From NCBI GenBank assembly GCA_001897305.1, contig MKSO01000001.1, positions 90,001 to 122,000 on the forward strand: a DNA stretch of 32,000 bases. The letters run 5' to 3'. This document shows, one piece after another, positions 1 to 30,690 of the stretch. This DNA comes from Candidatus Saccharimonadota bacterium. GTDB lineage: Bacteria; Patescibacteriota; Saccharimonadia; Saccharimonadales; Saccharimonadaceae. The notes under the pieces are model-generated. The model ran no database searches and had not been told where the DNA came from. It saw nothing but the letters and a program-made list of their open reading frames with translations. Numbering within the stretch: the first letter of the stretch is position 1; every line of letters begins with the position of its first letter. A program made the translations under genes and the position numbers.

Positions 1-1199
1 CTGAAAACGTTGATGCCCGCCGTAAGGCGAGTAATATCCAGTGGCAATTAACGCAGATCCACGGTATTGCCGAAATCCGTTTGTATGGGCTGGTTCGATA
101 CCTTTTGGCGCTACGCCAGAAATATCGAGACCAAGACGAGAAAGAGCAAATCCATATAGAGCGAAAATTCCTTAAGCAGGAATTTCTAGCGAGTGTTATT
201 GAAGCAGTTGCAGAAGTCGTGGCGCTTTTGTATGTTGTGTTGCACATTATTGCCCATGCTTTACCAATTGGACAATTTATTTATGTACAACAAATTGTTT
301 CAAGGGGGCTTAGTAGTATGCGTTCTGTGGCGCAGAGCTTTATTAACATAGATGAAGATTTAGCTAATCTTTCCGCCTACGATACTTTTATGAACTTGCC
401 AACTCAGAAGCCAGGCAAGGTAAGGCTAGATACCTCGCCTACATCAATCACAGTCGATGCTGTGTCGTTTCACTACCCAAACAATGATCGTCATGTTCTT
501 GAAGATGTATCCTTGCATGTTACAAAGGGTTCTCATATTGCTATTGTTGGCGAGAATGGAGCAGGTAAGTCAACACTTATAAAACTACTGCTGGGTTTTT
601 ATTATCCAACCAGCGGTACGATTACAGTTGATGGCATACCTACTACCGAGTTAGACCTCGAAAGTTGGCATGCAAAGGTTGGTGTCTTGCAGCAGTCGTC
701 CATCGACTTCGACTATGCCGACGCCAAAGACAATATTTTGCTTGGCGACGTGTCTCGACCCGAAGACGCTAAGCGCTACGAGCGGGCGATTGAAAAAGCC
801 GAAGCTAAAGAATTTCTTGATAAACTCCCCAAAAAAGACCGCACGTATATTGTGCAATGGATGGAGAGTGAAGACGGTACGCCAGGGGTGGCGCTTTCGG
901 GTGGTCAGCAACAGCGGCTGGCCTTGGCGCGTAATTTCTACCGCGACAGCCCGGTGGTTATTTTAGATGAACCCACCAGTGCTATTGATGCCCTGGCTGA
1001 GTCACGTATTTTCAAACGGTTGTTTGAAGAAAAGAACAAAACCATTATTACAATCAGCCACCGCCTTTCAACCGTCCGGCGCGCTGATGTCATTTACGTA
1101 CTCAAGGATGGCAAAATAGTCGAACAGGGGACACATAAAGAGCTAGTAAAGAAAAAAGGTGCCTACTATACGCTGTTTGAGAGCCAGTTAACAGATTGA
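1..1199 (+). CDS. ABC exporter, fused permease/ATP-binding protein (C-terminal part; 5' end lies upstream of the window)
   Basis: The frame is open from nt 3 (ENVDARRKASNIQWQL precedes the track start at 81). Walker A GENGAGKST, ABC signature LSGGQQQR, Walker B VVILDEPTS, H-loop ISHR. A hydrophobic TM-like segment lies upstream of the NBD. Confidence 0.9.
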   Translation, partial: ENVDARRKASNIQWQLTQIHGIAEIRLYGLVRYLLALRQKYRDQDEKEQIHIERKFLKQEFLASVIEAVAEVVALLYVVLHIIAHALPIGQFIYVQQIVSRGLSSMRSVAQSFINIDEDLANLSAYDTFMNLPTQKPGKVRLDTSPTSITVDAVSFHYPNNDRHVLEDVSLHVTKGSHIAIVGENGAGKSTLIKLLLGFYYPTSGTITVDGIPTTELDLESWHAKVGVLQQSSIDFDYADAKDNILLGDVSRPEDAKRYERAIEKAEAKEFLDKLPKKDRTYIVQWMESEDGTPGVALSGGQQQRLALARNFYRDSPVVILDEPTSAIDALAESRIFKRLFEEKNKTIITISHRLSTVRRADVIYVLKDGKIVEQGTHKELVKKKGAYYTLFESQLTD

Positions 1200-6800: not shown

Positions 6801-7441
6801 AAATCGGCGTCTTTGATTCGGGCATTGGTGGCAAAGCAATTGCAGAGCGGCTCGAACGTGATTACCCCAGCGATGAAGTGCTCTACGTCAACGATAGTAA
6901 GCATGTTCCATACGGTAGCCGCTCAAGTGAAGAAATTATTTCTCTTACTGATGCGGCTATACAACCGCTTCTCGATGCACAGTGCGATGTTGTTGTCTTG
7001 GCGCGTAATACCGCTACGGCAGCGGCGATAGAGTTTCTTAGAGAGAAGTACCCGACTACACCTTTTGTGGGCCTTGAGCCGATGGTAAAACCAGCTGCCC
7101 AACAAACGAAAACGGGGGTTATTGCTATATGCGCAACTCCTGCAACATTAAACAGCAGCCGCTATAGAGGCTTGAAAGATACTTACGCAAATGATGTAAA
7201 AGTGGTCGAGCCGGACTGTAGCCGGTGGGCTTCTATGATAGAACACAATCAAGTACAGCACGGCCATATCGCGCGTACGATTGAGGGTGTCTTAAAGCAA
7301 GGCGCTGATGTTATTGTCCTTGCATGTACGCACTATCATTGGATTAAAGAGGAAATTACCGGGCTGGTGGCTGGAAGGGCAATAATACTCGACCCATCGG
7401 AGGCGATTTCGCGGCGCGTCGGTGTTATTATCGGGAGCTAA
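6797..7441 (+). CDS. murI: glutamate racemase-like protein with first catalytic Cys replaced by Arg
   Basis: MKIGVFDSGIGG N-terminus, VLARNTATAAA (canonical ACNTA[ST]) and VLACTHYHW (canonical GCTHYP). ATGA overlap with the pilin stop. 214 aa. Confidence 0.8.
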   Translation: MKIGVFDSGIGGKAIAERLERDYPSDEVLYVNDSKHVPYGSRSSEEIISLTDAAIQPLLDAQCDVVVLARNTATAAAIEFLREKYPTTPFVGLEPMVKPAAQQTKTGVIAICATPATLNSSRYRGLKDTYANDVKVVEPDCSRWASMIEHNQVQHGHIARTIEGVLKQGADVIVLACTHYHWIKEEITGLVAGRAIILDPSEAISRRVGVIIGS

Positions 7442-7442
7442 A

Positions 7443-7480
7443 TAAAAAAAAGCCGGCCTAGATGCCGGAAATTCTTTTTT
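7443..7480. terminator. bidirectional rho-independent terminator
   Basis: An A8 run, a CCGGC/GCCGG stem with a 6-nt loop, then a T6 run. It sits after the murI stop and after the minus-strand cassette. Confidence 0.6.
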
Positions 7481-7491
7481 GGAAGGTGGAG
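7479..7491. repeat. left inverted repeat TTGGAAGGTGGAG
   Basis: Exact reverse complement of 7812-7824. Confidence 0.9.
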
Positions 7492-7503
7492 ATAGGGCGC
7501 CCG

Positions 7504-7541
7504 GGGGCGAGAAGCACAGGACTGCTGTGACATCTCGCCCC
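7504..7541 (-). terminator. GC-rich stem-loop 8 nt after the stop of the small ORF (no U-tract)
   Basis: GGGGCGAGA (7504-7512) pairs with TCTCGCCCC (7533-7541). An inner stem forms from CACAG/CTGTG. Confidence 0.5.
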
Positions 7542-7549
7542 TCGCGGAC

Positions 7550-7810
7550 TCAGCTGTGTGCACATCGGCACAGTCCGCAGGCCTGTCGCCCGTGGTCCGG
7601 ATGCGGACAGTGAGTGCAGTAGGCGCCACCGTTGTGTGAGCCACCGCCCCAGCGCTTCAGGATGAAGCGGCCGATGAACACCAACGTGATGAGCGCAGCT
7701 GCGACACACGCGATGATGACCATCGTCGGCAGGAAGTAGCTGACGAAAGCCAGCACGATGATCGCGAATACCAGCCAGCCGACCGGGTTTTGTGCGAAGC
7801 GCTTCAGCAT
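7550..7810 (-). CDS. small two-TM membrane protein with Cys/His-rich C-terminal tail (86 aa), GC-rich foreign composition
   Basis: The ATG at 7810 is preceded by GGAAGGTGGAG. Sequence MLKRFAQNPVGWLVFAIIVLAFVSYFLPTMVIIACVAAALITLVFIGRFILKRW, then ...AYCTHCPHPDHGRQACGLCRCAHS (5 Cys and 5 His in the last 33 aa). The upstream part of the 165-aa track ORF is AT-rich and lies before the SD. Confidence 0.6.
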   Translation of the reverse strand: MLKRFAQNPVGWLVFAIIVLAFVSYFLPTMVIIACVAAALITLVFIGRFILKRWGGGSHNGGAYCTHCPHPDHGRQACGLCRCAHS

Positions 7811-7811
7811 G

Positions 7812-7824
7812 CTCCACCTTCCAA
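7812..7824. repeat. right inverted repeat CTCCACCTTCCAA (contains the SD of the small ORF)
   Basis: Exact reverse complement of 7479-7491. Confidence 0.9.
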
Positions 7825-7830
7825 GGTTCG

Positions 7831-7849
7831 TGAGGATCTCACGGTGAGA
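7831..7849 (-). promoter_or_regulatory. GTGAG-n3-CTCAC-n1-GTGAG palindromic array in the leader of the small ORF
   Basis: CGTGAG gat CTCACG is a perfect 6-bp inverted repeat (7829-7843). A third GTGAG copy allows an alternative pairing. Confidence 0.35.
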
Positions 7850-7864
7850 TTCTCTAACTATCTT

Positions 7865-7873
7865 ATTATACCA
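7865..7873 (-). promoter_or_regulatory. extended -10 promoter TGGTATAAT (minus strand) reading into the GC-rich cassette
   Basis: The reverse complement of ATTATACCA is TGGTATAAT. It lies outside the inverted repeat, in AT-rich backbone sequence. Confidence 0.45.
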
Positions 7874-7932
7874 TACTATTGTTAAAAAAGCAATAATATC
7901 TCCCATGGCATATGGATGAAAGGGCTCTCTAC

Positions 7933-7941
7933 TGCTATAAT
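7933..7941 (+). promoter_or_regulatory. extended -10 promoter TGCTATAAT upstream of pnp
   Basis: Exact TGnTATAAT about 120 nt upstream of the pnp ATG. Confidence 0.5.
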
Positions 7942-8061
7942 GAAGACACCCCACAGCGTCTAAGTGCTGGATAGAGCGGTTTGAGATGTTTCTCCAACTT
8001 CTGTACCCGTTACTTACTCGCTCGAAGAATAAAAGTGGGTCAAACAAGAAGGAGGTTCCTT

Positions 8062-10188
8062 ATGCCAATTATCAACCCTTATGGCAAGGACATTATAAAG
8101 GTGACGACCGAATTTGAAGGCCGTCCATTAACGCTGGAAGTCAACCGTGTCGGTTTCCGTACCACCGGTTCGGTGCTGGTAACCTACGGCGATACCGTTG
8201 TGCTCGGCTCTGCACAGGTGGGCACTCGTCCAGTACAGCTGGATTATTTCCCACTCAGCATTGACTATGAAGAAAAATTTTATGCAGCTGGCAAAATTAG
8301 TGGTAGCCGCTTTATTAAGCGTGAAGGTCGCCCTTCAGACGAAGCGATTCTGATTGGTCGCCTTATTGACCGTCCAATCCGCCCACTGTTTCCAAAAGGC
8401 TATCGCCAAGAAGTCCAGGTTGTTGCCAGTGTATTAAGCCTCGACCCGGCTTTCCGCCCCGATATTATTGCGATGATTGCTGCGTCGGCTGCACTTAGTC
8501 TTACGGGTACACCATTTGATGGTCCAGTAGCGGGCCTTCGCGTTGGGCGTGTTAACGGCGAGTTTAAAGCCTTCTTAACTCCAGAGGAGCGTGAGGCATC
8601 TGATCTCGACCTCGTAGTTGCCGGTATCGAAAGTGGCATCACTATGGTGGAAGCGGGCGCTAACGAAGTACCCGAGGAAGTTGTCGCCGATGCACTGGCC
8701 TGGGCCTACGAACACTACCAACCAGCTATTAAGCTCCAGCAAGAACTGACTGCCAAAATAGCCCCAGTTGCCCAGGAATACACCCTGGTGTTGCCAGACC
8801 CAGCCCTCCAAGAGGCAGCTGATGCTTGGGTGGACGGTAAGCTTGGTGAAGCTATCCGCAAGCCATACCCAGAACGCAACGAACTCATTAACCAATTACG
8901 CTGGGCGTTTCATGAAGAAACCGCTGCGAAATATGCCGAAGAGAACGGCGAAGATGCAACGTACCCACGCGACAAATATGACGAAGCCTTTACGGCTGCG
9001 GTACACAAGGATGTTCGTAAGGGTATCGTTGAACACAAAACGCGCCCTGACGGTCGTAGTTTCGATGAAATCCGTCCACTTTCAAGTGAAGTAGGGGTAT
9101 TGCCGCGCGTACACGGTTCGTCGATCTTTACTCGTGGCCTGACCCAGGCTTTGAACATTGTTACATTGGCACCGCTGAGCTACGCCCAGATGGTTGATAC
9201 CATGGAAATTAACGATGGTGAGCGTCGTTATATGCACCACTACAATGCCCCTGGCTACACAGTAGGTGAAGTGCAGCGCCTTGGTTCACCGGGCCGTCGT
9301 GAAATTGGTCACGGCTACCTTGCAGAGCGTGCGCTTATTCCGGTATTGCCGAAAGAAGAAGATTTTCCGTACGCTATCCGTAGCGTCACCGAAATTATGA
9401 GCCAAAACGGTTCTACCTCAATGGCTGCAACTTGTTCAAGCTGTTTAGCCTTGATGGATGCCGGTGTGCCAATTAGCGCTCCTGTATCGGGTATTGCTAT
9501 GGGTCTTATTATGGATGGCGATGAAGCTAACATCCTTAGTGATATTGCTGATGCCGAAGACTTTGCCGGTGATATGGACTTTAAATCTGCCGGAACGGCC
9601 AAGGGTATCACTGCTTTGCAGATGGACATGAAAGTGCATGGCTTGCCGGTAGAAATTCTTAAAGAAGCCCTGCTGACAGCCAAAAAGGGCCGGGCGGTTA
9701 TTTTGGAACACATGCTCACAACGCTTGCTGCGCCACGCGAAGCCCTTAGCCCGTATGCGCCACGCATCGAGAAGATCAAGATCAACCCTGATAAGATCGG
9801 TGCGGTCATTGGTAAGGGTGGTGAAGTCATTAACAAGATTACTGCCGAAACAGGTGCAGAAATCGACATTAAGGATGACGGTCTTATTACGGTTGCTGCT
9901 GCCGACACCGCTAAGATCGAAGCCGCGCTTAACTGGATCAAGAGCCTTACCGAAGAGCCTGAAGTTGGCCGTATTTACGACGGTAAAGTGGTAAGTATTA
10001 AAGACTTTGGTGCTTTCGTGAACATTTTGCCTGGTATTGATGGCATGGTTCATATTTCACAGCTTTCTGACCAACGTGTTGAAAAGGTTGAAGATGTGTT
10101 AACGATGGGTGAGACCATTAAGGTCAAGTTGATGGGTATTGACGAGAAGGGGCGTTTGAGCCTTTCGGTCAAAGAAGCTAATCGCTAG
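8062..10188 (+). CDS. pnp: polyribonucleotide nucleotidyltransferase (PNPase)
   Basis: The ATG at 8062 follows AAGAAGGAGG. Two RNase PH-like domains, a KH domain (GKGGEVINKITAETGAEIDI) and an S1 domain (GKVVSIKDFGAFVNILPGIDGMVHISQL). Confidence 0.95.
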   Translation: MPIINPYGKDIIKVTTEFEGRPLTLEVNRVGFRTTGSVLVTYGDTVVLGSAQVGTRPVQLDYFPLSIDYEEKFYAAGKISGSRFIKREGRPSDEAILIGRLIDRPIRPLFPKGYRQEVQVVASVLSLDPAFRPDIIAMIAASAALSLTGTPFDGPVAGLRVGRVNGEFKAFLTPEEREASDLDLVVAGIESGITMVEAGANEVPEEVVADALAWAYEHYQPAIKLQQELTAKIAPVAQEYTLVLPDPALQEAADAWVDGKLGEAIRKPYPERNELINQLRWAFHEETAAKYAEENGEDATYPRDKYDEAFTAAVHKDVRKGIVEHKTRPDGRSFDEIRPLSSEVGVLPRVHGSSIFTRGLTQALNIVTLAPLSYAQMVDTMEINDGERRYMHHYNAPGYTVGEVQRLGSPGRREIGHGYLAERALIPVLPKEEDFPYAIRSVTEIMSQNGSTSMAATCSSCLALMDAGVPISAPVSGIAMGLIMDGDEANILSDIADAEDFAGDMDFKSAGTAKGITALQMDMKVHGLPVEILKEALLTAKKGRAVILEHMLTTLAAPREALSPYAPRIEKIKINPDKIGAVIGKGGEVINKITAETGAEIDIKDDGLITVAAADTAKIEAALNWIKSLTEEPEVGRIYDGKVVSIKDFGAFVNILPGIDGMVHISQLSDQRVEKVEDVLTMGETIKVKLMGIDEKGRLSLSVKEANR

Positions 10189-14137: not shown

Positions 14138-14728
14138 ATGGTGGCTGCAAAAGATACCCAAGCTCAACTTGATGCGCTCGCCGAATCTATTTTGGCGGCG
14201 AATGTTTGCCCAGAATTACGCGACCAAGCCACACAATTAGTAATGGGCGATGGCAATCCTGATGCCGAAATTGTATTTATCGGTGAAGCGCCCGGTAAAA
14301 ATGAAGACCTACAGGGAAAGCCTTTTGTGGGTGCAGCTGGTAAGTTCTTGAATGAAATGCTGGCCCAGGCCGGTATGGACCGTAGCGATGTGTATATTAC
14401 GAATATCGTGAAATATCGTCCGCCTAATAACCGTGACCCCTTACCTGAAGAGAAAGCTGCCTTCTGGCCGTATCTTTTAAAACAACTCGAAATTATTCAA
14501 CCAAAAGTAGTCATTACCCTTGGTCGCCATAGCATGGAGTACTTTTTGCCAGGTCTGAAAATCGGCCAAATCCACGGCGAGCCCAAGCGTATTCAATTTG
14601 GTGATCATAAAATTGTGATCATGCCGTTGTTTCACCCCGCTGCCGCTCTGTATAACGGGGGGCTACGCCAAACGTTGATTGATGACTTTCTTAAAGTTCC
14701 AGAAGTTATTAGGCAGTTAAGTCATTAA
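14138..14728 (+). CDS. uracil-DNA glycosylase, family 4
   Basis: Motif GEAPGKNEDLQGKPFVGAAGKFL and C-terminal HPAAALY, typical of family-4 UDG. The start is 1 nt after the upstream stop. Confidence 0.85.
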   Translation: MVAAKDTQAQLDALAESILAANVCPELRDQATQLVMGDGNPDAEIVFIGEAPGKNEDLQGKPFVGAAGKFLNEMLAQAGMDRSDVYITNIVKYRPPNNRDPLPEEKAAFWPYLLKQLEIIQPKVVITLGRHSMEYFLPGLKIGQIHGEPKRIQFGDHKIVIMPLFHPAAALYNGGLRQTLIDDFLKVPEVIRQLSH

Positions 14729-14787
14729 AAAAGCCCCCTGTAGGGGGGTGTGGAGGGGGTGACGTGCGCCACCCCCCCCTTTTTTCA
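14729..14787. terminator. two back-to-back GC hairpins between an A-run and a T-run (composite convergent terminator)
   Basis: Hairpin 1 is CCCCC tgta GGGGG (14734-14747), preceded by A6. Hairpin 2 is GGGGGTG (14755-14761) paired with CACCCCC (14770-14776), followed by CCC and T6. Confidence 0.6.
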
Positions 14788-14788
14788 C
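14759..14788. repeat. direct repeat, left copy GTGACGTGCGCCAC-C7-T6-CAC
   Basis: Aligns with 15297-15322 at 22 of 26 positions, with homopolymer-length and 3-nt indels. Confidence 0.7.
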
Positions 14789-15306
14789 GAGTTGCCCGAG
14801 GTTGGTGTGAATTCTGACTCGAAGGCTTTGAGGTCGATCCCGCACCGCACCAGTGTGGATCGATGCTCATCGAGGTGTCGTTCTCGATCTTCGTCCATCT
14901 CCTGGCGTTGAACCCTCTTGAGGCCCATTGCCTTCGTCAGCCTGTCGTGCAGGTGTTTGCTGGAGAGGTGTGTCGCGAACTCCAGAGCCTCTTGTCGAAC
15001 CATTTCTGTGCGGGGATCTCCTTCGAATTCCACCTCGCCCAAGTGGCTAAAGTGAACTGCGAACGGACCCTGTGGCATGTCGGCGAAGTGCTGCTCCACT
15101 TGGGGCTTGCCGTTTTCCTGCCACCAGAGGTCGAATCGTGGTGTGATGCTTTCGCGCACCTCCTGTTCCTCTTGTCTGAACCTTTGCATGTGATGTTTGA
15201 AGGTCTTTTTTACGGTCCTTTTCAGGCTCCGCGCCAGCTCCTTTCGGATGTAGATAGCGGCCGAGATGACCACTAGTGCGTATGCTATCGACTCTAGTGA
15301 CGGCAT
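14785..15306 (-). CDS. hypothetical N-terminally anchored charged protein, 173 aa, GC-enriched
   Basis: The ATG at 15306 follows GAAGGGAGTGG. TM helix SIAYALVVISAAIYI, then a highly charged, His-rich region. The antisense 137-aa ORF lacks an SD and looks compositional. Confidence 0.55.
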   Translation of the reverse strand: MPSLESIAYALVVISAAIYIRKELARSLKRTVKKTFKHHMQRFRQEEQEVRESITPRFDLWWQENGKPQVEQHFADMPQGPFAVHFSHLGEVEFEGDPRTEMVRQEALEFATHLSSKHLHDRLTKAMGLKRVQRQEMDEDRERHLDEHRSTLVRCGIDLKAFESEFTPTSGNS

Positions 15307-22608: not shown

Positions 22609-23103
22609 ATGCTACTCGCCAAAGAGGCAGAAGCCAGAGCATCGTCGGCAAAGTTTTTGCCGGCGTTCTTTGTTGAGCCTCTTGAGCGAGGCGAGACTAT
22701 TGCGACTGATGCCTTGCCGCCACATGTTGCGCTCTATTCAGAGGTGAACATGCTATATAGGCCAAAGATGGATGAATTAGTCCGTTTTGCCGTGCAAGGC
22801 ATTGCTCCGCACGAGATTAAACTAGCCGAACGAACCTATGACGATACGAACGGCTCATCAACTTTCCGCGTTATGGGCAGCCTGTCGCTAAGTATGACCT
22901 ACCGCTCACTCTTTACGATTCTTCAAAGCTTTTCCCGTGAAACTGTTCAGCCGTTTCGCCCTAAGATTGTTGTGCCGCAAGGTCCATCGCAGCTGCACGA
23001 GGATCAACATTTATCAGTGAATAGCATTACTGTCATTGAGACATATGCCCAAACCTCTGACTGGGAGGTGGTCGATGTTATTCCTTTAAGGGGTAAAGTA
23101 TGA
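22609..23103 (+). CDS. hypothetical protein, 164 aa
   Basis: ORF in backbone composition, tightly packed between efp and tlyA (ATGA overlap with tlyA). No confident domain. Confidence 0.5.
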   Translation: MLLAKEAEARASSAKFLPAFFVEPLERGETIATDALPPHVALYSEVNMLYRPKMDELVRFAVQGIAPHEIKLAERTYDDTNGSSTFRVMGSLSLSMTYRSLFTILQSFSRETVQPFRPKIVVPQGPSQLHEDQHLSVNSITVIETYAQTSDWEVVDVIPLRGKV

Positions 23104-23831
23104 AGAACCGTTTAGACGCCGAACTAGTAAAGCGCGGGCTTGTTCAAAGTCGCTCTCAGGCCGAGAGTTGGATAAAACTGGGTAAAGTCACCGTTGATGG
23201 CAGGATAGTTACTAAATCAGGTCATTTTGTGCACGAGGCTAGTGATATTAAACTTACCACCACCGAACAATATGTTAGCAGGGCTGGCCTTAAATTAGCC
23301 AGTGTCGCAAAACTGTTAGGTGTTTCATTTAAAGATGCAGTTGTGCTCGATGTCGGTAGTAGTACGGGTGGTTTCACCGATTACGCTCTACAGCACGGAG
23401 CTAAGAAGGTATATGCCGTCGATGTAGGTACAGACCAGCTTCATCCTAGTTTGCAAGGCCATGAGCTCATTGAGCTACACGAGAAAACTGATATTCGAGA
23501 TTTTATTCCCAGTGAAACACCCGACATTATTGTTATCGACGTTTCTTTTATAAGCTTACGAGAAATCTTGCCACATTTAGCACATAGTGTAGCCGGCCCA
23601 AACACGGCCATTATGGCAATGGTAAAACCCCAGTTTGAAGCCGGGCGCAACCAAACCAACAAAGGGGTGATTAAGAATGATTCCGTCCGTCGCCAGATAT
23701 TGAAGGACTTTGAAGATTGGTCACGCGACTTGTTTGTTATAAAAGACAAGCGCGATAGTGAAGTGGCGGGGTCGAAGGGGAATAGAGAGCGATTTTATTT
23801 GCTGAATTTAGGGCTGAGGCAGCGGCCCTGA
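23100..23831 (+). CDS. tlyA: TlyA-family rRNA 2'-O-methyltransferase (S4 domain + FtsJ-like methyltransferase)
   Basis: RLDAELVKRGLVQSRSQAESWIKLGKVTVDG (S4 domain), the SAM motif VLDVGSSTGGFTD, and DVSFISL. Confidence 0.9.
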   Translation: MKNRLDAELVKRGLVQSRSQAESWIKLGKVTVDGRIVTKSGHFVHEASDIKLTTTEQYVSRAGLKLASVAKLLGVSFKDAVVLDVGSSTGGFTDYALQHGAKKVYAVDVGTDQLHPSLQGHELIELHEKTDIRDFIPSETPDIIVIDVSFISLREILPHLAHSVAGPNTAIMAMVKPQFEAGRNQTNKGVIKNDSVRRQILKDFEDWSRDLFVIKDKRDSEVAGSKGNRERFYLLNLGLRQRP

Positions 23832-24782
23832 GGACGCCGAATTACCTGCGGTGCCTTTCCAGGCCCAGCCAGGTGAATCACCGTCTGCGTAGGTATAGGC
23901 AGTAGACCCTTCGGTGAGCATTATTGCATCCCAATACGTATCACCACCACCTTGTCGAGCACCGTTGTATAGCCGAGCAAAGGCTTCGGTTGCATTAGTA
24001 GGTACTGTAAAAGTAACATTTAAGCGAGTGGTACCTGTCGCATTGGTGGCCTGCTGAGAAGAAGTGGGGACGTACCCAGCAGTTCCTTCTTTTGTATAGA
24101 CAACGATTGTTCTTGCGCGGGTGTCTAGCGTTCCTGACATTGCTGAGGGTACGCGAATTGTAGCAGAGAGGGTATACGTTTTTCCAGGCTCAAGGCCCAT
24201 ACGGATGCCACCACTATCACCACCAATTGCCGAAAAGCTATCGGAACTTGAGGTTGAGCCGGGTACTTGCCTTAGCGACCGAGTTCCTTGGGCGGCCCAG
24301 TTGGTGCTCATCGTAGCAGATACGTTTGATGCACCGTAGGTGCTGATGTCGTTCTCTATACTAGGGTTTGTCGTAAGGTTAGTAATAGCCGCCACGCCGT
24401 TAGCGGCGTGTCCAGGGTAAGCGCCTGGAGTGGGCTGGGTATTGGTGCTTGATATGTAATACGAGAACTTTCCGCTCGTAGCAGTAAGGCCAAACTTTTG
24501 AGGAGAGGCGGTATTATCAACAGTATACTGCAGTTTTTGTTGGTCGGAGCCGCTTATATCAATTGCACTTAGGCTTGAAGGGTAGTCGCCGTTGTTTAGT
24601 GTTGCGTAGAACTGAACCTTTTTGCCTACTTGCTGGGCCATACTTTGGGCTGCTGACTGCATAGCACGGTTGTTGATGCCGTTATAGGATATTAGGGTGA
24701 TAGCTGCAAGTATAGCTATCACCACGACGACGATGAGTAACTCTACTATAGTAAAGCCATGTCGCTTTTTTATTGCCCACAT
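23808..24782 (-). CDS. type IV pilin-like protein fused to a CBM-like jelly-roll C-terminal domain, 324 aa
   Basis: KKRHG/FTIVELLIVVVVIAILAAITLISYNG N-terminus. The C-terminal part shows NPSIEND...GTRSL...GKTYTLSATIRV...ARLYNG...YWDAIMLTEG and YADGDSPGWAWKGTAGNSAS. Its 3' end overlaps tlyA by 24 nt (convergent). Confidence 0.8.
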   Translation of the reverse strand: MWAIKKRHGFTIVELLIVVVVIAILAAITLISYNGINNRAMQSAAQSMAQQVGKKVQFYATLNNGDYPSSLSAIDISGSDQQKLQYTVDNTASPQKFGLTATSGKFSYYISSTNTQPTPGAYPGHAANGVAAITNLTTNPSIENDISTYGASNVSATMSTNWAAQGTRSLRQVPGSTSSSDSFSAIGGDSGGIRMGLEPGKTYTLSATIRVPSAMSGTLDTRARTIVVYTKEGTAGYVPTSSQQATNATGTTRLNVTFTVPTNATEAFARLYNGARQGGGDTYWDAIMLTEGSTAYTYADGDSPGWAWKGTAGNSASSGPLPQP

Positions 24783-25977: not shown

Positions 25978-26072
25978 TCACACCTGTTATGATATTGATT
26001 TTTAACACTTTTTGTGTTATAGTTCACTTATCGTGACGAGTCAAGGGTTTCTTTGATATTGTTGCGTGCACT

Positions 26073-26092
26073 CGGCGAGCGCCCGCTCGTCG
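26073..26092 (+). promoter_or_regulatory. near-perfect palindrome CGGCGAGCG-cc-CGCTCGTCG upstream of the island's first gene
   Basis: 8 of 9 positions are complementary across a 2-nt centre. It lies 25 nt upstream of the ATG at 26117. Confidence 0.3.
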
Positions 26093-26116
26093 TCCTTCCT
26101 ATCATTGGAGAAATTC

Positions 26117-26875
26117 ATGTTCAGCACCACCCGCCAGCGCATGAAGCGCGCAGCCGCCCTGGCCGTCACCCTCGGTTTCGTCGGTGTGGCTTTCGCCGTG
26201 GCAGCACCTGCTTCCGCGGACAACCTCCTGGAGGCCGGCGGCAGCGCCAGCGACGCGTACTGCGTCGATGGTGGAGCCGCTACCGACGTGGAGGTCTACG
26301 TCAGGCCCGCAACGGCGAACATCACCACGTACGTCAGCCAGTCCGTGGATGGAACGGGCATCGTCACTGACTTCGGTGGCCCGACCAACGCCAACGGTTC
26401 GTACAGCGTCACTGTTCCCATCGCCAAGCAGGGCACGACCGTGATCCAGTACGGCTACCTGCTGCCGTCCGGTGAAGGTGTCTTCGCGGGTGACCGCGAC
26501 TTCACCTTCCCGGAGAAGTGCGTGGTCGACCCGACTCCGACTCCGACCCCGACGCCCACCGAGACGCCGACGCCGGAGCCCACCCCGACGCCCACCGAGA
26601 CCCCGGTCCCGACTCCGACGCAGAGCGCCGGTCCGGTGACCCCCTCGGAGCCGTCGAACCCGTCGACCCCCGCCACGGGCAACACCGACACGTCGACCAA
26701 GGCGGACACGTCGCAGCAGAACACGCTCAACCCGGCCAAGACCGACGGCGCCGATCTCGCTTCCAGCAAGTTCGGCATCAACCCGTGGTTCGCCGGTTCG
26801 AGCGTCGCTGCGATCACCGCCCTGGTGATCGCGATCGCCTGGGTGGCTCGCCGCCGCCGTGGCGAGCAGCACTGA
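26117..26875 (+). CDS. secreted surface protein: signal peptide, ~100-aa domain, Pro-Thr linker, C-terminal hydrophobic anchor + RRRR
   Basis: The ATG follows TTGGAGAAATTC. MFSTTRQRMKRAAALAVTLGFVGVAFAVAAPASA/DN, then DPTPTPTPTPTETPTPEPTPTPTETPVPTPTQ, then ...AGSSVAAITALVIAIAWVARRRRGEQH. No exact LPXTG or LAXTG motif. Confidence 0.75.
   Translation: MFSTTRQRMKRAAALAVTLGFVGVAFAVAAPASADNLLEAGGSASDAYCVDGGAATDVEVYVRPATANITTYVSQSVDGTGIVTDFGGPTNANGSYSVTVPIAKQGTTVIQYGYLLPSGEGVFAGDRDFTFPEKCVVDPTPTPTPTPTETPTPEPTPTPTETPVPTPTQSAGPVTPSEPSNPSTPATGNTDTSTKADTSQQNTLNPAKTDGADLASSKFGINPWFAGSSVAAITALVIAIAWVARRRRGEQH
26528..26623 (+). repeat. coding tandem Pro-Thr (CCG/CCC-ACN) low-complexity repeat
   Basis: 32 codons of P-T/E repeats. 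The nucleotide units CCGACTCCGAC and CCCACCGAGAC(G/C)CCG recur. Confidence 0.85.
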
Positions 26876-27605
26876 CAACGGCCGTCGAGCGAGGCGTCAA
26901 CCCAAGAGTCGCCAGCGGCTTCTTCGGTATGCCTTCATCGCCCTGTGCACGCTGAGTGCACTCTGTCTGTTGGCGGGGTTTGTAATCCCCATGCCAGCGT
27001 ACAGTCAGGGTGCGGAGGGGTCGCCATCCATTGCGGTGGCGACCCCGACGGCCTCGCCGACGCCCATGCTGACGCCGACCCCAACCCGGTCGGCCACGCC
27101 CACTCCAACACCCAAGCCTCCGTGGCAGTTTGGCTCAGCCACGCTGTCGATTCCGGCGGCAGGGGTGAACCAGTCGATCACGCCGTATACCCAAGCGGAT
27201 ATCGACGCAAATGGTGGAGTGGAGCCGCCAGACATGGCTGCGATCTCGTGGGATACAACCATCCCCGGGTCGAAGTTGTCTGTCACCACCACGAACACCA
27301 TCTACCTGTATGGGCATTCGTGGATCGAGCCGGCGGTGTTCAACGACGTGTGGAAGCTCCAGCCTGGAGCGGCTGCTTCGATCACGTCGACGGCGGCTGA
27401 CGGTTCCGTGGAGGTGTTGGACTTCGTGATGAACGAACCTACCTTCACGGTCATGAAGCCAGATTTCGACTCCGACGCCCGAGTAACACCGGTGGATCGT
27501 TGTCGTCTGGTGGTTGTCAGCTGCTACCGGCCTGACGGGTATGACCCGCAGTCGAAAACGGTTGAGAATGTCGTTGCGATCTTCCAGCGACCCGCCTGCG
27601 GATAA
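26859..27605 (+). CDS. sortase-like transpeptidase (class-F-like), membrane anchored
   Basis: GTG start overlapping the upstream gene by 17 nt. A positively charged N-terminus plus TM helix (FIALCTLSALCLLAGFVI), a PT linker, then LSIPAAGV, LYGHS (His153) and VVSCYRP (Cys222). The start codon is uncertain. Confidence 0.7.
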   Translation: MASSTDNGRRARRQPKSRQRLLRYAFIALCTLSALCLLAGFVIPMPAYSQGAEGSPSIAVATPTASPTPMLTPTPTRSATPTPTPKPPWQFGSATLSIPAAGVNQSITPYTQADIDANGGVEPPDMAAISWDTTIPGSKLSVTTTNTIYLYGHSWIEPAVFNDVWKLQPGAAASITSTAADGSVEVLDFVMNEPTFTVMKPDFDSDARVTPVDRCRLVVVSCYRPDGYDPQSKTVENVVAIFQRPACG

Positions 27606-27649
27606 CCCGCGTCTACGGACCTTCGCGGTCTTGTAGGCGCGGGTTATCC
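27600..27649 (+). terminator. long GC hairpin beginning inside the stop codon, no U-tract
   Basis: GGATAACCCGCG (27600-27611) pairs with CGCGGGTTATCC (27638-27649) as a perfect 12-bp stem. Inner stems form from CTAC/GTAG and GACC/GGTC. Confidence 0.55.
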
Positions 27650-27669
27650 CGCTCCGATGAGGAAGGATA

Positions 27670-27700
27670 CCCCGGCCACAAGCCGGGGTCTTTTCTTTTG
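27670..27700 (+). terminator. rho-independent terminator
   Basis: CCCCGGC cacaa GCCGGGG, followed by TCTTTTCTTTT. Confidence 0.75.
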
Positions 27701-27739
27701 GGGCTAAATAATCCTCTTTAGATAGCGTAAGCAATATAC

Positions 27740-27754: not shown

Positions 27755-28240
27755 ATGAAGCAGAAAAAGAAAACGCTCCGCATCATTTTGCTTTCTTTGG
27801 GTATTGTGATTCTTTTAGGTGGGTCAGGGGTGGCATACATGTTTGTAGCGAAGGTTGGCCTTTTTGCGAATCCTCATCAGACTTCAGTTGATGAGCGAGC
27901 ATCATACAAGAAGGCGTCGACTGGTATTGCCAACGCCGGAACGACGCAAGCGGATATTATTAATATGGTGGCCGCGTATGGTCCTCAATATGATGCGGCA
28001 TATGCCGAGGTGCAAAAGTCTAATCCATCAACTTGGGATAGTCTTATGGTGGATAAAGCTTTCATGTGTGTTCTTTATGCAAATAAAATTAAGGCAGCCT
28101 CTCAGGTTGAAACCTTATACTACAAAATACAATCAGCACGAGATGCTGGAATAAGTGTGGATAGTAATAATGCTGGGGTTACGAAAGATCAACTGCAAAC
28201 CATCTTTGATAATCGTAGTAAACATGAGGGATCCCAATAA
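27755..28240 (+). CDS. hypothetical N-terminally anchored protein, 161 aa
   Basis: KKKTLRIILLSLGIVILLGGSGVAYMFV is a signal anchor. The stop overlaps the next ATG (TAATG). Confidence 0.6.
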   Translation: MKQKKKTLRIILLSLGIVILLGGSGVAYMFVAKVGLFANPHQTSVDERASYKKASTGIANAGTTQADIINMVAAYGPQYDAAYAEVQKSNPSTWDSLMVDKAFMCVLYANKIKAASQVETLYYKIQSARDAGISVDSNNAGVTKDQLQTIFDNRSKHEGSQ

Positions 28241-30690
28241 TGAGACTTTTTGATACTCCGCTGAAAAAAGCCCTTGTCGTACTTGCCCTGTTGGCTGGTC
28301 CAGCTTTTATGGCCTTCGTGGGTATTGGTGGCTCGAAGGCATTCGCGGTTATTAACTATACGGAGGCTGTACAGGCAATCGATAATGCGTGCGGTCGTGG
28401 TCTTCGTATGGCACACGCTGCATATGGAGAAAATCCCGTCTTGGACGAATCAAGTGGTACGGTAACTTATGATCTGGTTATTTTATGGAAGCGCTGTTCT
28501 TGGGGGACAGTTGGAGAGTATGCAATTACTGGTTACGATGGAGACGCTTGCCCGCCTATAGGTAAGTATCACTACGATAATTACACTGAAACACGTGACT
28601 GTGTAAAGTATACAAATCGACACGGTACAACTTATGGTTTGTGTGGGGTGTATCGCTGTGTATATCAGTCGTTTTATGACTATGGGATTAAACAGGGTGG
28701 CGATGGCGGGCCATTTGATTTGGACCTGCATAGTAAGAAATTTTCCGGACGAACAGTAACTATTGGTGACTGGGGTAATAAAACAAAGAAGTCCGGTACT
28801 GAGGATGTTTTCGTCTCGAGACTTGGGGATTATTACTCAGGCGAATCCAATCGTATTAAACAGGATACCTATGTACGTGTTTCCTGGACACGCCCCTGGT
28901 CTATTAACGGGCAATCTTATATTCAAAATGGTACCGTTGCTAATAAAGACCTTGCAAGCAAAGGGCCTGTTACAGCTAAACCGGGTGATCGCCTAAACTG
29001 GTATCACGACCTTCGCAATGATGGTCCGCATGATATGGATAAGAATGTCTATTGGAATGTTGATAAAACTGGCTTCTCTAATGGCTGGAATGATCATAAA
29101 GAGCCACTGGGCAATACAAGTGGCGGGGCGAATGTGTTGTTTGTCTACGAGTATGCCCAATTCCCCGCAGAACCATGGAGGGCGGCGAGTCCCTATACTA
29201 AGTATGATGTGACCCAGGACGATGTAGGGAATACTTTATGTCAAAGAATCGCCTGGAACCCGGGTAAATATGATGATAGCAACTGGTATGCGAGTGATTA
29301 TGCTTGTGCGGATGTGCCGTATAACTATAGCCTCGTTCCAACTATTAGTAATGTCACTGATGGTAATACCGTTGAGCCAGGCGGAACGACGATACCGGTT
29401 ACGGGGCGAGTAACGAATAATGGTCCTACGAAATCTCAAACAAATGTGAAATGGCAAATAACAGAGGTAAAGTATGCACCGGGGGCAACTATTAATAATA
29501 AGTCAGGTGGTGAAAGCTCATCTAACCCTTGCGCATACTTCACTGGTGGAGCTTGTCGTTCTCTGAGTGACGGAACAGAAACGAGTGGCTACACCTACCC
29601 AGATACGAAACCGTATGATGTAAATGCCAACATTAACGACGAGCCTGTGGGCACAAAAATGTGCTACGCAATGTCTGTTCAACCATATACCCAAAGCTCA
29701 TCTAACTGGAGTCATTCTCAACTGTATTGTCTTGTTGTTAACAAAAGGCCAAAGGCAGATGTCTTGGGTGGTGATTTGATTGTTGGGCGTGGTTCGGTGA
29801 CGAACTCTGCGCGTGTTTCGGAGGTAACGACATCTGTTTCAAAAACAAGCTCAAACGGGTATTTCGGTTCATGGGCTGAATACGGCATTACCTCGACAGG
29901 TATCGTAACGGGTATGGCTTCGGGCTCAGGCTTTGCAGGGGGCGCTTCTGGGTCTAGCTTATGTGGTAAGTTAAGCGTCCTTACACTTACTAATGCTAAT
30001 GCTGCGGGGTCTTGTTCGGAGTCCGCCATAGGTAAGTACCCAACTGCTAGTACGGCGCCTAGTATTGCGGCGCGTTTCCCCGTTAACTCGGCTACTCCGG
30101 CACTATCGGGTGTGGCAAATATTACAGGTGATAATCTATCCGGCTTATATAAGGCAACCGACGCAGCGCTTACTGTTGTAAGTGATGGTGCCATTCCGGC
30201 TGGCCGTTGGGTAGTTATCAATGCCCCTAACACTACAGTTACTATTGGGAGTAATATTACCTATACAAACGATCCGCTAACATCTATAGCTCAAATCCCC
30301 CAAGTTGTTATTATTGCCAAAAACATTATTATTGCCGATAAAGATGTAGGTAAACCGGGTGACCCTGCAATATCCCAAGTTGACTCTTGGCTAGTAGCTG
30401 TTGGGAGCGGGTCTGAAGGGCGCATTAATACCTGTGGTGCGGGAACGGTGAGTGAGTCTACTGCACTTACCTCTAAAGTCTGTGATGCTAAGCTGACGGT
30501 GAATGGTCCAATTACCGCTAATCGTCTTATTCTTCGTCGTACGGCTGGTGCTGGTGTTGGCTCGGCCGCCGGCGACCCAGCTGAGGTATTTAACTTACGT
30601 TCAGACGCTTATATCTGGGCAACGAGCTATAGTCCGGGGACCGGCCGCCTTCCGACTGTCATGACAAAAGAAATTCCGCCTCGCTTTTAA
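28240..30690 (+). CDS. large secreted protein, 816 aa, Cys-rich N-terminal region, Ig/CARDB-like middle, Gly/Ser/Ala-rich C-terminal region
   Basis: Signal peptide ALVVLALLAGPAFMAFVGIGGSKAFA. There are 9 Cys between residues 50 and 140. Segments LRNDGPHDMD and VTGRVTNNGPTKS resemble CARDB-type Ig domains. It lies directly upstream of pilM. Confidence 0.75.
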   Translation: MRLFDTPLKKALVVLALLAGPAFMAFVGIGGSKAFAVINYTEAVQAIDNACGRGLRMAHAAYGENPVLDESSGTVTYDLVILWKRCSWGTVGEYAITGYDGDACPPIGKYHYDNYTETRDCVKYTNRHGTTYGLCGVYRCVYQSFYDYGIKQGGDGGPFDLDLHSKKFSGRTVTIGDWGNKTKKSGTEDVFVSRLGDYYSGESNRIKQDTYVRVSWTRPWSINGQSYIQNGTVANKDLASKGPVTAKPGDRLNWYHDLRNDGPHDMDKNVYWNVDKTGFSNGWNDHKEPLGNTSGGANVLFVYEYAQFPAEPWRAASPYTKYDVTQDDVGNTLCQRIAWNPGKYDDSNWYASDYACADVPYNYSLVPTISNVTDGNTVEPGGTTIPVTGRVTNNGPTKSQTNVKWQITEVKYAPGATINNKSGGESSSNPCAYFTGGACRSLSDGTETSGYTYPDTKPYDVNANINDEPVGTKMCYAMSVQPYTQSSSNWSHSQLYCLVVNKRPKADVLGGDLIVGRGSVTNSARVSEVTTSVSKTSSNGYFGSWAEYGITSTGIVTGMASGSGFAGGASGSSLCGKLSVLTLTNANAAGSCSESAIGKYPTASTAPSIAARFPVNSATPALSGVANITGDNLSGLYKATDAALTVVSDGAIPAGRWVVINAPNTTVTIGSNITYTNDPLTSIAQIPQVVIIAKNIIIADKDVGKPGDPAISQVDSWLVAVGSGSEGRINTCGAGTVSESTALTSKVCDAKLTVNGPITANRLILRRTAGAGVGSAAGDPAEVFNLRSDAYIWATSYSPGTGRLPTVMTKEIPPRF

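Follow-up and report, generated by a model that had tools for sequence, protein, structure and literature searches.

A GC-rich island of 1641 nt (26060-27700) lies between ychF and a type IV pilus operon in the stretch of Saccharimonadaceae DNA analysed here, which is 32 kb long and which we call the window. The island is likely to be a two-gene sortase–substrate cassette of actinobacterial origin. Gene 1 encodes a putative surface protein and gene 2 a divergent class-F-like sortase; the two appear to form a dedicated pair, matched through a C-terminal signal that contains the triplet T-D-G. An initial annotation, made from the sequence alone, had proposed a horizontally acquired surface-display module of actinobacterial type, and this proposal is borne out by the composition of the island, the sortase fold of gene 2, its class F relatives and the native composition of the same module in actinobacteria.

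Composition and recurrence of the island

The island contains 64.7% GC, compared with 47.3% elsewhere in the window. In 500-nt segments the GC fraction is 0.61-0.69 across 26001-27500 and 0.39-0.55 in all others; other segments of 1641 nt have 0.475 ± 0.019 with a maximum of 0.527, compared with 0.647 for the island. At 40-nt resolution the GC fraction rises from 0.38 to 0.70 at 26060 and returns to 0.38 at 27700, which places the left step between 26020 and 26060 and the right step at ~27700. In tetranucleotide use the island differs from the remaining window by a distance of 0.059, compared with 0.027 ± 0.003 for other segments, or about 12 standard deviations off the backbone. Gene 1 reaches a GC fraction at third codon positions (GC3) of 0.86 (z = 7.2), and gene 2 one of 0.72 (z = 4.7); the backbone comparison set of 29 genes has 0.46 ± 0.056. 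The non-repetitive cargo domain of gene 1 reaches a GC3 of 0.85 by itself, and the Pro-Thr linker is therefore not the cause of the high value.

These scans agree with the initial annotation, which had reported that composition jumps at about 26060 and falls back at about 27700. The island is an outlier in both GC3 and tetranucleotide use across the window; the hand counts of G and C in three 60-nt lines (46, 35 and 28) are exact on recount, and the codons of both genes do end mostly in G or C. The annotation had also remarked that spurious long open reading frames (ORFs) crowd both strands here. We counted nine additional ORFs of at least 60 aa on the two strands of the island, found no homologues for any of them, and regard them as the expected by-product of high GC. 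Two minus-strand ORFs, 26102-26878 and 27135-27734, were dropped as gene candidates: they lack homologues, and the coding GC3 pattern sits in the plus-strand frames.

GC steps as sharp as those at both edges could also arise from an assembly chimera or from actinobacterial contamination in the bin, the first of which the initial annotation had named as a possible refutation. We consider the probability of either negligible. A protein identical to that of gene 1 is listed in 41 index blocks. The 24 contigs that were read came from several projects and reached lengths of > 1 Mb; on 23, the neighbours are the same. Recurrence of this context on 23 contigs or more shows that no chimera is involved. 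In L001, which belongs to a different Saccharibacteria species with a YchF 92% identical to that of the window, both island junctions align with those of the window base for base, and the module stands beside ychF in four further Saccharibacteria assemblies.

The Saccharibacteria loci with the module are the window, L001-L004, L022 and L024. At each of these loci no more than one gene separates the module from ychF. L002, L003, L004, L022 and L024 have the pair between ftsJ and ychF; in the window and L001 it is found on the opposite side of ychF. In the synteny comparison that the initial annotation had suggested (ychF, island, pilM), the module stands in this clade as a GC3-rich island beside ychF and the type IV pilus operon. 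The module-free comparison is L028, the sole useful relative from a metagenome scan with YchF (the rest being mostly distant and from outside the Saccharibacteria). This related Saccharibacterium has neither module nor GC spike, and its YchF is 82% identical to that of the window and 89% to that of L022. The spread of the module is thus patchy, with presence in the window, L001-L004, L022 and L024 and absence from L028; YchF identity among all Saccharibacteria compared is 79-96%.

Within the backbone, GC3 has its maximum, 0.67, in the minus-strand ORF 14785-15306, which is overlapped by a plus-strand ORF (14863-15276). A local GC bump (14501-15000, GC 0.53) surrounds this ORF pair, and a search of NCBIfam only gave no match for either member.

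The sortase, its substrate and their signal

The structural model of gene 2, built with AlphaFold2 (AF2) from an alignment, has a mean pLDDT of 83 and exceeds 90 across most of the catalytic domain. When it was compared with the Protein Data Bank (PDB) by Foldseek, all nine of the nine best matches were sortases (E 1e-6 to 7e-5, probability 1.00; target-normalised TM-scores 0.45-0.63), among them SrtA (1t2w), SrtE1 (5cuw), Actinomyces oris SrtA (5utt) and Corynebacterium diphtheriae SrtF (5uus). A PDB search at the sequence level, with a profile of the family, retrieved no sortase; of the two approaches, only comparison of folds succeeded. In the sortase alignment, in which 20 relatives 33-63% identical to the window protein were aligned, His153, Cys222, Arg216 and Arg224 are all invariant. 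The predicted strands 148-153 and 216-223 have His153 and Cys222, respectively, at their ends, and hhalign pairs the two residues with His120 and Cys184 of Staphylococcus aureus SrtA (E 0.0028). The sortase catalytic triad is His-Cys-Arg (PMC8225981). Its His follows beta4, its Cys ends beta7 and its Arg is on beta8. The motifs LSIPAAGV, LYGHS and VVSCYRP noted in the initial annotation are present and fall on family-invariant columns.

The relatives of gene 2 place it near class F. Of the 20 relatives in the alignment, 17 match the NCBIfam class F model NF033748 (best E 4.4e-10); three members of the alignment match the class GN model weakly. Most homologues carry a precomputed match to the Pfam Sortase family PF04203, and NCBI names several relatives, from Cryobacterium, Leifsonia and Candidatus Microsaccharimonas, 'class F sortase'. 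Exhaustive HMMER searching with the gene 2 family gave cluster counts of 37 (E < 1e-30), 180 (E < 1e-10) and 1180 (E < 1e-3). These counts make the subfamily a small, divergent offshoot of a broader class-F-like family. Gene 2 is a divergent sister or subfamily of class F, outside NF033748 at the level of the model.

The start of gene 2 is placed at GTG 26859, which gives a 17-nt overlap with gene 1. We chose this start because it is the only one that retains the membrane anchor, which homologues also have; overlap, anchor and Pro-Thr-rich linker are as the initial annotation described them. Public gene calls begin gene 2 too late (146, 179 or 204 aa), lose anchor and linker and carry the label hypothetical; OJU96680.1 and MBN9398375.1 are such records. 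In the window and L001 alike, the sortase ends in CG and has a second Cys within DRCR (residues 247 and 214 of gene 2; codons 27597-27599 and 27498-27500). In Cryobacterium the C-terminus is GC and the second Cys stands within TLCYV, and the other Saccharibacteria sortases are without this Cys pair. The paired Cys of the window/L001 and Cryobacterium enzymes may form lineage-specific disulfides.

For gene 1 the likeliest start is ATG 26117, with GGAG (26107-26110) 6 nt before it; the listed start, GTG 26066, is less likely. GenBank OJU96679.1 has the same sequence as the product and comes from Candidatus Saccharibacteria bacterium 47-87, to which the bacterium of the window is identical or nearly so. 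All the parts that the initial annotation listed are present: Sec signal peptide, domain of ~100 aa, 32-aa Pro-Thr linker, and hydrophobic helix with RRRR. The AF2 model of the domain has eight beta strands, with pLDDT ~80-90 over aa 40-130. Foldseek matched it to generic FN3, CARDB and macroglobulin-type sandwiches only, so that its function cannot be read from the fold, and neither Pfam nor NCBIfam matched gene 1 or any of the other cargo proteins. The gene 1 homologue in L001 (P0043) is 49% identical. A cargo homologue (P0044), 52% identical, lies on a contig of 66% GC, ends in a canonical LAETG and has an LPATG protein adjacent to it.

Gene 1 has the layout of a sorting-signal protein, with an N-terminal signal peptide and a C-terminal motif, hydrophobic segment and basic tail; the helix and RRRR are proposed as its membrane-retention part. 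LPXTG or LAXTG is found neither in gene 1 nor in the adjacent substrates at any of the 24 distinct loci examined that carry the sortase subfamily (the window, L001-L005, L022, L024, L109, L110 and fourteen Cryobacterium genomes). Instead, at all 24 a substrate gene stands directly upstream of the sortase gene, and its product has a TDG signal, a transmembrane helix and a basic tail. Among 14 aligned signals, whose cargo is otherwise unrelated, T-D-G never varies, and conservation of the N seven residues upstream is at least 90%. The motif falls in the gene 1 peptide QQNTLNPAKTDGADLA and reads NTLNPAKTDG in the window, NTLSPAKTDG in L001, NTVPGGKTDG in L002 and L003, VVPGGKTDG in L004, NAVPKGNTDG in L022, VPGGATDG in L024, NSVPRAKTDG in L005, NxLHDS[KRLEN]TDG in the fourteen Cryobacterium genomes, NVLYDAKTDG in L110 and TVPGGGTDG in L109; it was also found in L014 in addition to L024, L109 and L110. 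A spacer of 12-22 residues separates TDG from the hydrophobic helix, and a signal of this type occurs once in the 32-kb window. The substrate gene overlaps the sortase gene by 4 or 17 nt in many loci. None of the Pfam and NCBIfam anchor models matches the TDG signal, and a literature search on the motif plus 'sortase' returned nothing relevant.

The cargo in front of the signal is unrelated between lineages. The Cryobacterium proteins consist of Cys-rich QCN repeats and those of L002 and L003 are 430 aa long; the cargo of L004 and L022 shares only a weak match of 94 aa, and the domain of the window and L001 is different again. Conserved enzyme, conserved signal and swappable cargo read as the signature of a dedicated sortase–substrate pair. 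Two contigs of ~51% GC, L109 (2023-4783; GCA_017884045.1) and L110 (3-1854), carry pairs of TDG substrate and sortase rich in GC3, so the cassette is present in more mid-GC genomes than the clade studied here.

If gene 1 and gene 2 work as we propose, a backbone-type promoter would yield a single transcript from which the two genes are translated in a coupled manner. The gene 1 product would be exported by Sec and kept in the membrane by its C-terminal helix and RRRR, where the membrane-anchored, dedicated gene 2 sortase would recognise N-x-L-x4-T-D-G. The predicted Cys222/His153 centre would then cleave within or beside T-D-G, with Cys222 carrying the thioacyl intermediate, and pass the Ig-like domain together with its Pro-Thr stalk to a peptidoglycan precursor, resulting in covalent surface display.

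Several features of the pair weigh against this reading. Gene 2 scores 18.6 bits (E 0.0016) with PF04203, below the gathering threshold of 26.6. It has no NCBIfam hit; with NF033748 there is no match at E <= 1. The initial annotation's assignment to the sortases therefore stands on fold, His and Cys and class F relatives, but not on these two models. The predicted strand beta8 (residues 236-243) is without Arg and has the invariant Asn237 at the canonical Arg position, where most of the listed relatives readable there show the pattern [D/E]N[IVF]VV. The invariant Arg residues sit elsewhere, Arg224 at a non-canonical position two residues past the Cys and Arg216 in GRL; either might substitute for the beta8 Arg. 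Classical LPXTG signals have a shorter spacer between motif and transmembrane helix than the ~12-22 aa seen with TDG. What the analysis shows is the composition, the sortase fold, the conserved His and Cys, the pairing with a TDG-type signal at every locus, the phyletic distribution and the non-chimeric context; cleavage, cell-wall anchoring, donor identity and any role in host contact are inferences.

Missing beta8 Arg, sub-threshold model scores and a long spacer could together mean that gene 2 is no longer a transpeptidase, or is a protease only, that gene 1 stays tethered to the membrane, and that TDG has another use, such as glycosylation or a protease site. Class F sortases moreover have no established role, and a quadruple srtF knockout in Actinoplanes had no phenotype (PMC13251363). 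We nevertheless think this unlikely. The invariance of His153, Cys222, Arg216 and Arg224 at 33-63% identity argues for a conserved active site, and strict pairing, coupled translation and a TDG that is kept along with the enzyme as the cargo changes are what a dedicated pair predicts.

Table 1. Features of the island and of its two gene products. Positions refer to the window, residues (aa) to the named protein.
Feature	Position	Strand	Basis and details
Promoter-like site: TTGATT, 17-nt spacer, TATAGT, upstream TG	25995-26023	+	Consensus scan
GC-rich 5' leader, left edge of foreign DNA	26060-26116	+	Small hairpin; GGAG at 26107-26110
Gene 1, 252-aa putative sortase substrate	26117-26875	+	ORF list, GC3, AF2 model
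Sec signal peptide	gene 1 aa 1-33		Ends ASA/DN; N-terminus MFSTTRQRMKRAAALAVTLGFVGVAFAVAAPASA/DN
Ig-like beta-sandwich with two Cys	gene 1 aa ~38-135		AF2
Pro-Thr linker, 32 aa	gene 1 aa 138-169		Followed by S/T/P-rich stalk and C-terminal sorting signal
Proposed sorting motif N202-T-L-N-P-A-K-T209-D210-G211	26720-26749	+	Consensus N-x-[L/V]-x4-T-D-G
Hydrophobic helix (aa ~227-243), then RRRR (aa 245-248)	26795-26860	+	Sequence; AF2 helix 227-249
Gene 2, 248-aa divergent class-F-like sortase	26859-27605	+	
Membrane anchor	gene 2 aa 17-40		
Pro/Thr/Ala linker	gene 2 aa 46-88		
Catalytic domain	gene 2 aa 89-248		
His153 codon (LYGHS)	27315-27317	+	Predicted catalytic His; invariant in sortase alignment
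Cys222-Tyr-Arg224 codons (VVSCYRP)	27522-27530	+	Cys222 is the predicted catalytic Cys; invariant in sortase alignment
GC-rich hairpin over gene 2 stop, no U tract	27600-27649	+	17-nt inverted repeat, ~22 pairs in RNA fold
Canonical intrinsic terminator, 8-bp stem then CTTTTCTTTT	27669-27699	+	Terminator scan

Edges, origin and history

The composition of the module elsewhere points to its source. L005 is a contig treated as actinobacterial (69% GC, with hut and threonine-dehydratase neighbours), and its pair matches its own backbone (GC3 0.84 and 0.86 versus 0.88). The Cryobacterium modules, at a GC3 of 0.68-0.90, are likewise within the range of neighbouring ORFs. The four other Saccharibacteria loci with both genes have GC3 z values of 2.7 to 15.2, the L024 sortase alone one of 1.5, and in all five Saccharibacteria loci with both genes the GC3 of the substrate exceeds that of the sortase. 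Named members of the subfamily come from Cryobacterium and Leifsonia (Microbacteriaceae) and Microsaccharimonas (Saccharimonadaceae) only; such taxonomic statements cover named members, the more distant family clusters having given no organism names. The closest homologues of gene 2 are those of L001 (63% identity) and of L002-L004, L022 and L024 (42-58%). According to the initial annotation, closest homologues from the same CPR (Candidate Phyla Radiation) lineage, with backbone-like composition, would speak against acquisition. They do come from related Saccharibacteria, but they too sit in GC-rich islands. Since related Saccharibacteria also hold such islands, the feature belongs to the clade and is not a strain-specific novelty.

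Both edges of the island carry elements of their own. The promoter-like site on the left lies in AT-rich, backbone-type DNA; its sequence is conserved in L001, and AT-rich promoter-like sequences are also found 5' of the module in L004 and L022. The leader region (26040-26116) is ~90% identical between the window and L001 despite near-saturated synonymous sites, which suggests a constrained regulatory element. Its fold is unexceptional (z = -0.8); it is common to the window and L001 only, and no conservation was found across other sublineages or Actinobacteria. On the right, the long hairpin over the gene 2 stop shows three compensatory base-pair changes relative to L001, read from the alignment. 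L005 has a 19-bp hairpin without U tract in the same place, and L002 also has a 19-bp hairpin. The hairpin of the window resembles a donor-type (actinobacterial-style) terminator or mRNA stabiliser, at the right edge of the foreign DNA. The initial annotation had mentioned GC hairpin terminators lacking a U tract. Such a hairpin is there, but it is followed by a canonical terminator with a T tract, which is conserved in L001 and has similar U-tract counterparts 3' of the module in L004 and L022. Jointly, the two 3' hairpins fold with -74 kcal/mol (z = -9.6).

Two other readings of the 3' hairpins were rejected. A match to the Rfam family anti-hemB (25 bits, gathering threshold 49.5) reflects these two hairpins only, and an attC-like element of an integron cassette is accompanied by neither an integrase nor a cassette array.

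Saccharibacteria live on Actinobacteria, including the Microbacteriaceae genus Leucobacter (PMC9894109). Together with the composition, the cargo homologue P0044, the hairpin resembling that of L005 and the module-free L028, hosts among the Actinobacteria give good support to a transfer whose donor was a Microbacteriaceae-like actinobacterium; it is plausible that this donor belonged to the organism's own host lineage. The opposite direction, in which Saccharibacteria owned the cassette first and Actinobacteria received it from them, the GC content being a product of amino-acid composition and selection, is very improbable. Sortases are common in CPR bacteria (PMC6744442), and the window's half of the sortase tree does hold more sequences of Saccharibacteria type than of actinobacterial type. 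However, GC3 is an outlier in every two-gene Saccharibacteria locus, and the composition is native in L005 and, in the Cryobacterium loci, within the GC3 range of neighbouring ORFs; the high GC3 extends to the non-repetitive cargo domain. A related genome, L028, is without the module, P0044 lies on a high-GC contig with LAETG and LPATG proteins, and the relatives match the NCBI model of class F, a class reported from actinobacteria.

In a neighbour-joining tree of the sortases, a split with 100% support sets the Saccharibacteria and L005/P0011 apart from Cryobacterium/Leifsonia. L005/P0011 nests within the Saccharibacteria, where the bootstraps are 33-76. The catalytic domains of the window and L001 are 45-58% identical to the other Saccharibacteria sortases, to which L005 is 50-56% identical. 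One acquisition at minimum, and probably two, took place at the same variable region of surface-protein genes: two are favoured by the position on opposite sides of ychF, by a window/L001 sortase distance as large as that of L005, and by the place of L005 inside the Saccharibacteria group. The cassette would then have entered the clade from Microbacteriaceae-like donors, its cargo being exchanged and its sortase and signal kept.

The window and L001 share one insertion event. Their synonymous divergence (dS) is 1.3 in ychF and EFP, > 2 in pilM, g4 and ftsJ and > 4 at most; in the island it is 0.88 for gene 1 and 1.26 for gene 2. As a rough estimate, simple two-state relaxation from ~0.88 predicts a GC3 of ~0.6. 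Gene 2, with 0.72 in the window and 0.60 in L001, fits this value, and gene 1, with 0.86 and 0.76, is off. Either the cargo genes were replaced more recently than the sortase, or the synonymous sites of gene 1 are constrained.

An alternative history, which we regard as possible but distinctly less probable than repeated entry, is a single ancient acquisition in the ancestor of the clade, followed by vertical descent, rearrangement around ychF in the window and L001, and loss in L028, with selection holding GC3. It agrees with the position of all Saccharibacteria sortases on one side of the 100% split, with the sister pairs window + L001 and L002 + L003, which mirror YchF, and with a module never more than one gene from ychF. 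The lower dS of gene 1 (0.88 versus 1.3 to > 4 in the backbone) also agrees, and could reflect synonymous constraint. On the other hand, L005/P0011 nests among the Saccharibacteria, the window/L001 sortase is as distant from those of other Saccharibacteria as L005 is, although YchF distances are similar, and the cargo domains are unrelated between sublineages. With synonymous sites saturated, neutral amelioration should moreover have erased a GC3 of 0.76-0.88.

Transfer from an actinobacterial donor has difficulties of its own. The flanks of the island have no direct repeats or att-like sites, and the neighbourhood has no mobility gene, integrase or tRNA. Bootstraps of 33-76 mean that the number and direction of transfers are not proven by the neighbour-joining tree, and simple amelioration fails to explain a gene 1 GC3 of 0.86 where backbone synonymous sites are near saturation.

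Flanking genes and known systems

Beside the island lie two genes for surface proteins that evolve fast, g3 and g4, and the type IV pilus operon pilM-pilB. The genes g3 (161 aa, N-terminally anchored) and g4 (816 aa) lie just upstream of pilM, at 27755-30690, and neither has a Pfam or NCBIfam match. Counterparts occur in L001 (10841-16439), L003 (5084-10192) and L028 (3333-5814 and 7116-10794), and the pair is duplicated in some. Between the window and L001, g3 is 22% and g4 66% identical, compared with 92% for YchF; the g4 homologues read to the C-terminus (window, L001 and L028) end in TKE(I/L)PPRF. On the other side, the minus-strand gene 23808-24782 encodes a type IV pilin with an N-terminal methylation motif and a CBM_4_9-like C-terminal domain. 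It is convergent with an ftsJ-like gene (23100-23831), with a 24-nt overlap at the 3' end. A comparable pilin is located elsewhere in L001, on the plus strand between ftsK and rpsF. In L005, ychF is ~5 kb from the sortase cassette (1339-2412 and 7426-8687), a nearness that is probably coincidence.

Type IV pili mediate host association in Saccharibacteria (PMC9894109). A role of the cassette in host contact is attractive given the adjacent pilus operon, but it is speculation. A bolder version, to which we give very little credence, is that the cassette came from the host as a 'grappling' system and is renewed time and again through uptake of host DNA: the sortase would use a host wall precursor and so join the TDG-tagged protein of the epibiont covalently to the wall of the host, or the display would amount to host-like mimicry, and cargo would be swapped as hosts change. 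The rationale is that the peptidoglycan of Microbacteriaceae is unusual and that a Microbacteriaceae sortase may accept the host precursor as nucleophile. If true, it would mean covalent attachment between species, used together with the adjacent type IV pilus.

Sortases in CPR bacteria are already known (PMC6744442), as is the annotation of gene 2 relatives as class F. What appears to be undescribed is the TDG signal with its strict pairing, the non-canonical position of the Arg, the cross-phylum distribution of the cassette, a persistent GC-rich island at one locus of a Saccharibacteria clade, and the evidence that cargo is swapped. The gene 2 subfamily offers a clean, testable enzyme–signal pair whose motif is missed by the Pfam and NCBIfam anchor models, and a new sortase specificity could serve protein-ligation chemistry. 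The island is also a concrete case of transfer from the phylum that supplies the hosts, its surface genes adjoin type IV pilus genes, and the cassette is a specific candidate for studies of attachment or host range. Donor-like GC3 and cargo swapping hint at recurrent acquisition at one hotspot, which bears on how genome-reduced epibionts renew their surface repertoire.

Class F sortases (NF033748; IPR042001; prototype Propionibacterium/Cutibacterium acnes SrtF) are the closest known system, with a shared beta-barrel fold, an N-terminal anchor, the His and Cys and occurrence in Actinomycetota; the motifs GRLVLxxC and xN[IVF]VV are present in most of the listed relatives readable there. The class is widespread in Actinobacteria and has no known physiological role (PMC13251363). 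It differs in that the characterised P. acnes enzyme uses LPXTG (PMC8225981), whereas the gene 2 subfamily is paired with N-x-[L/V]-x4-T-D-G, consists of one enzyme with one adjacent substrate and is also found in Saccharibacteria; gene 2 itself does not match NF033748. Class E, represented by Streptomyces SrtE1 (5cuw), gives the second-best structural match (E 2.4e-6) and shares the high-GC Gram-positive setting, and the LAETG of P0044, the cargo homologue of gene 1, is of the class E LAXTG type. Class E enzymes, however, are housekeeping sortases with many substrates (PMC8225981), and their sorting motif differs from TDG. SrtB and IsdC (NPQTN) follow the same logic, a specialised sortase beside one substrate with a variant motif, but class, motif and taxa differ and the genes belong to an iron-uptake operon. 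The single-target 'class GN/marine' sortase system (TIGR03784) has the same one-substrate logic, again with a different class, motif and taxa. With atypical genes gained by horizontal transfer in CPR bacteria and Saccharibacteria, the island shares the GC and tetranucleotide anomaly, the patchiness and nearest outside relatives in the host-supplying phylum; it differs from them in that the same small cassette recurs at one locus clade-wide and its GC3 stays high.

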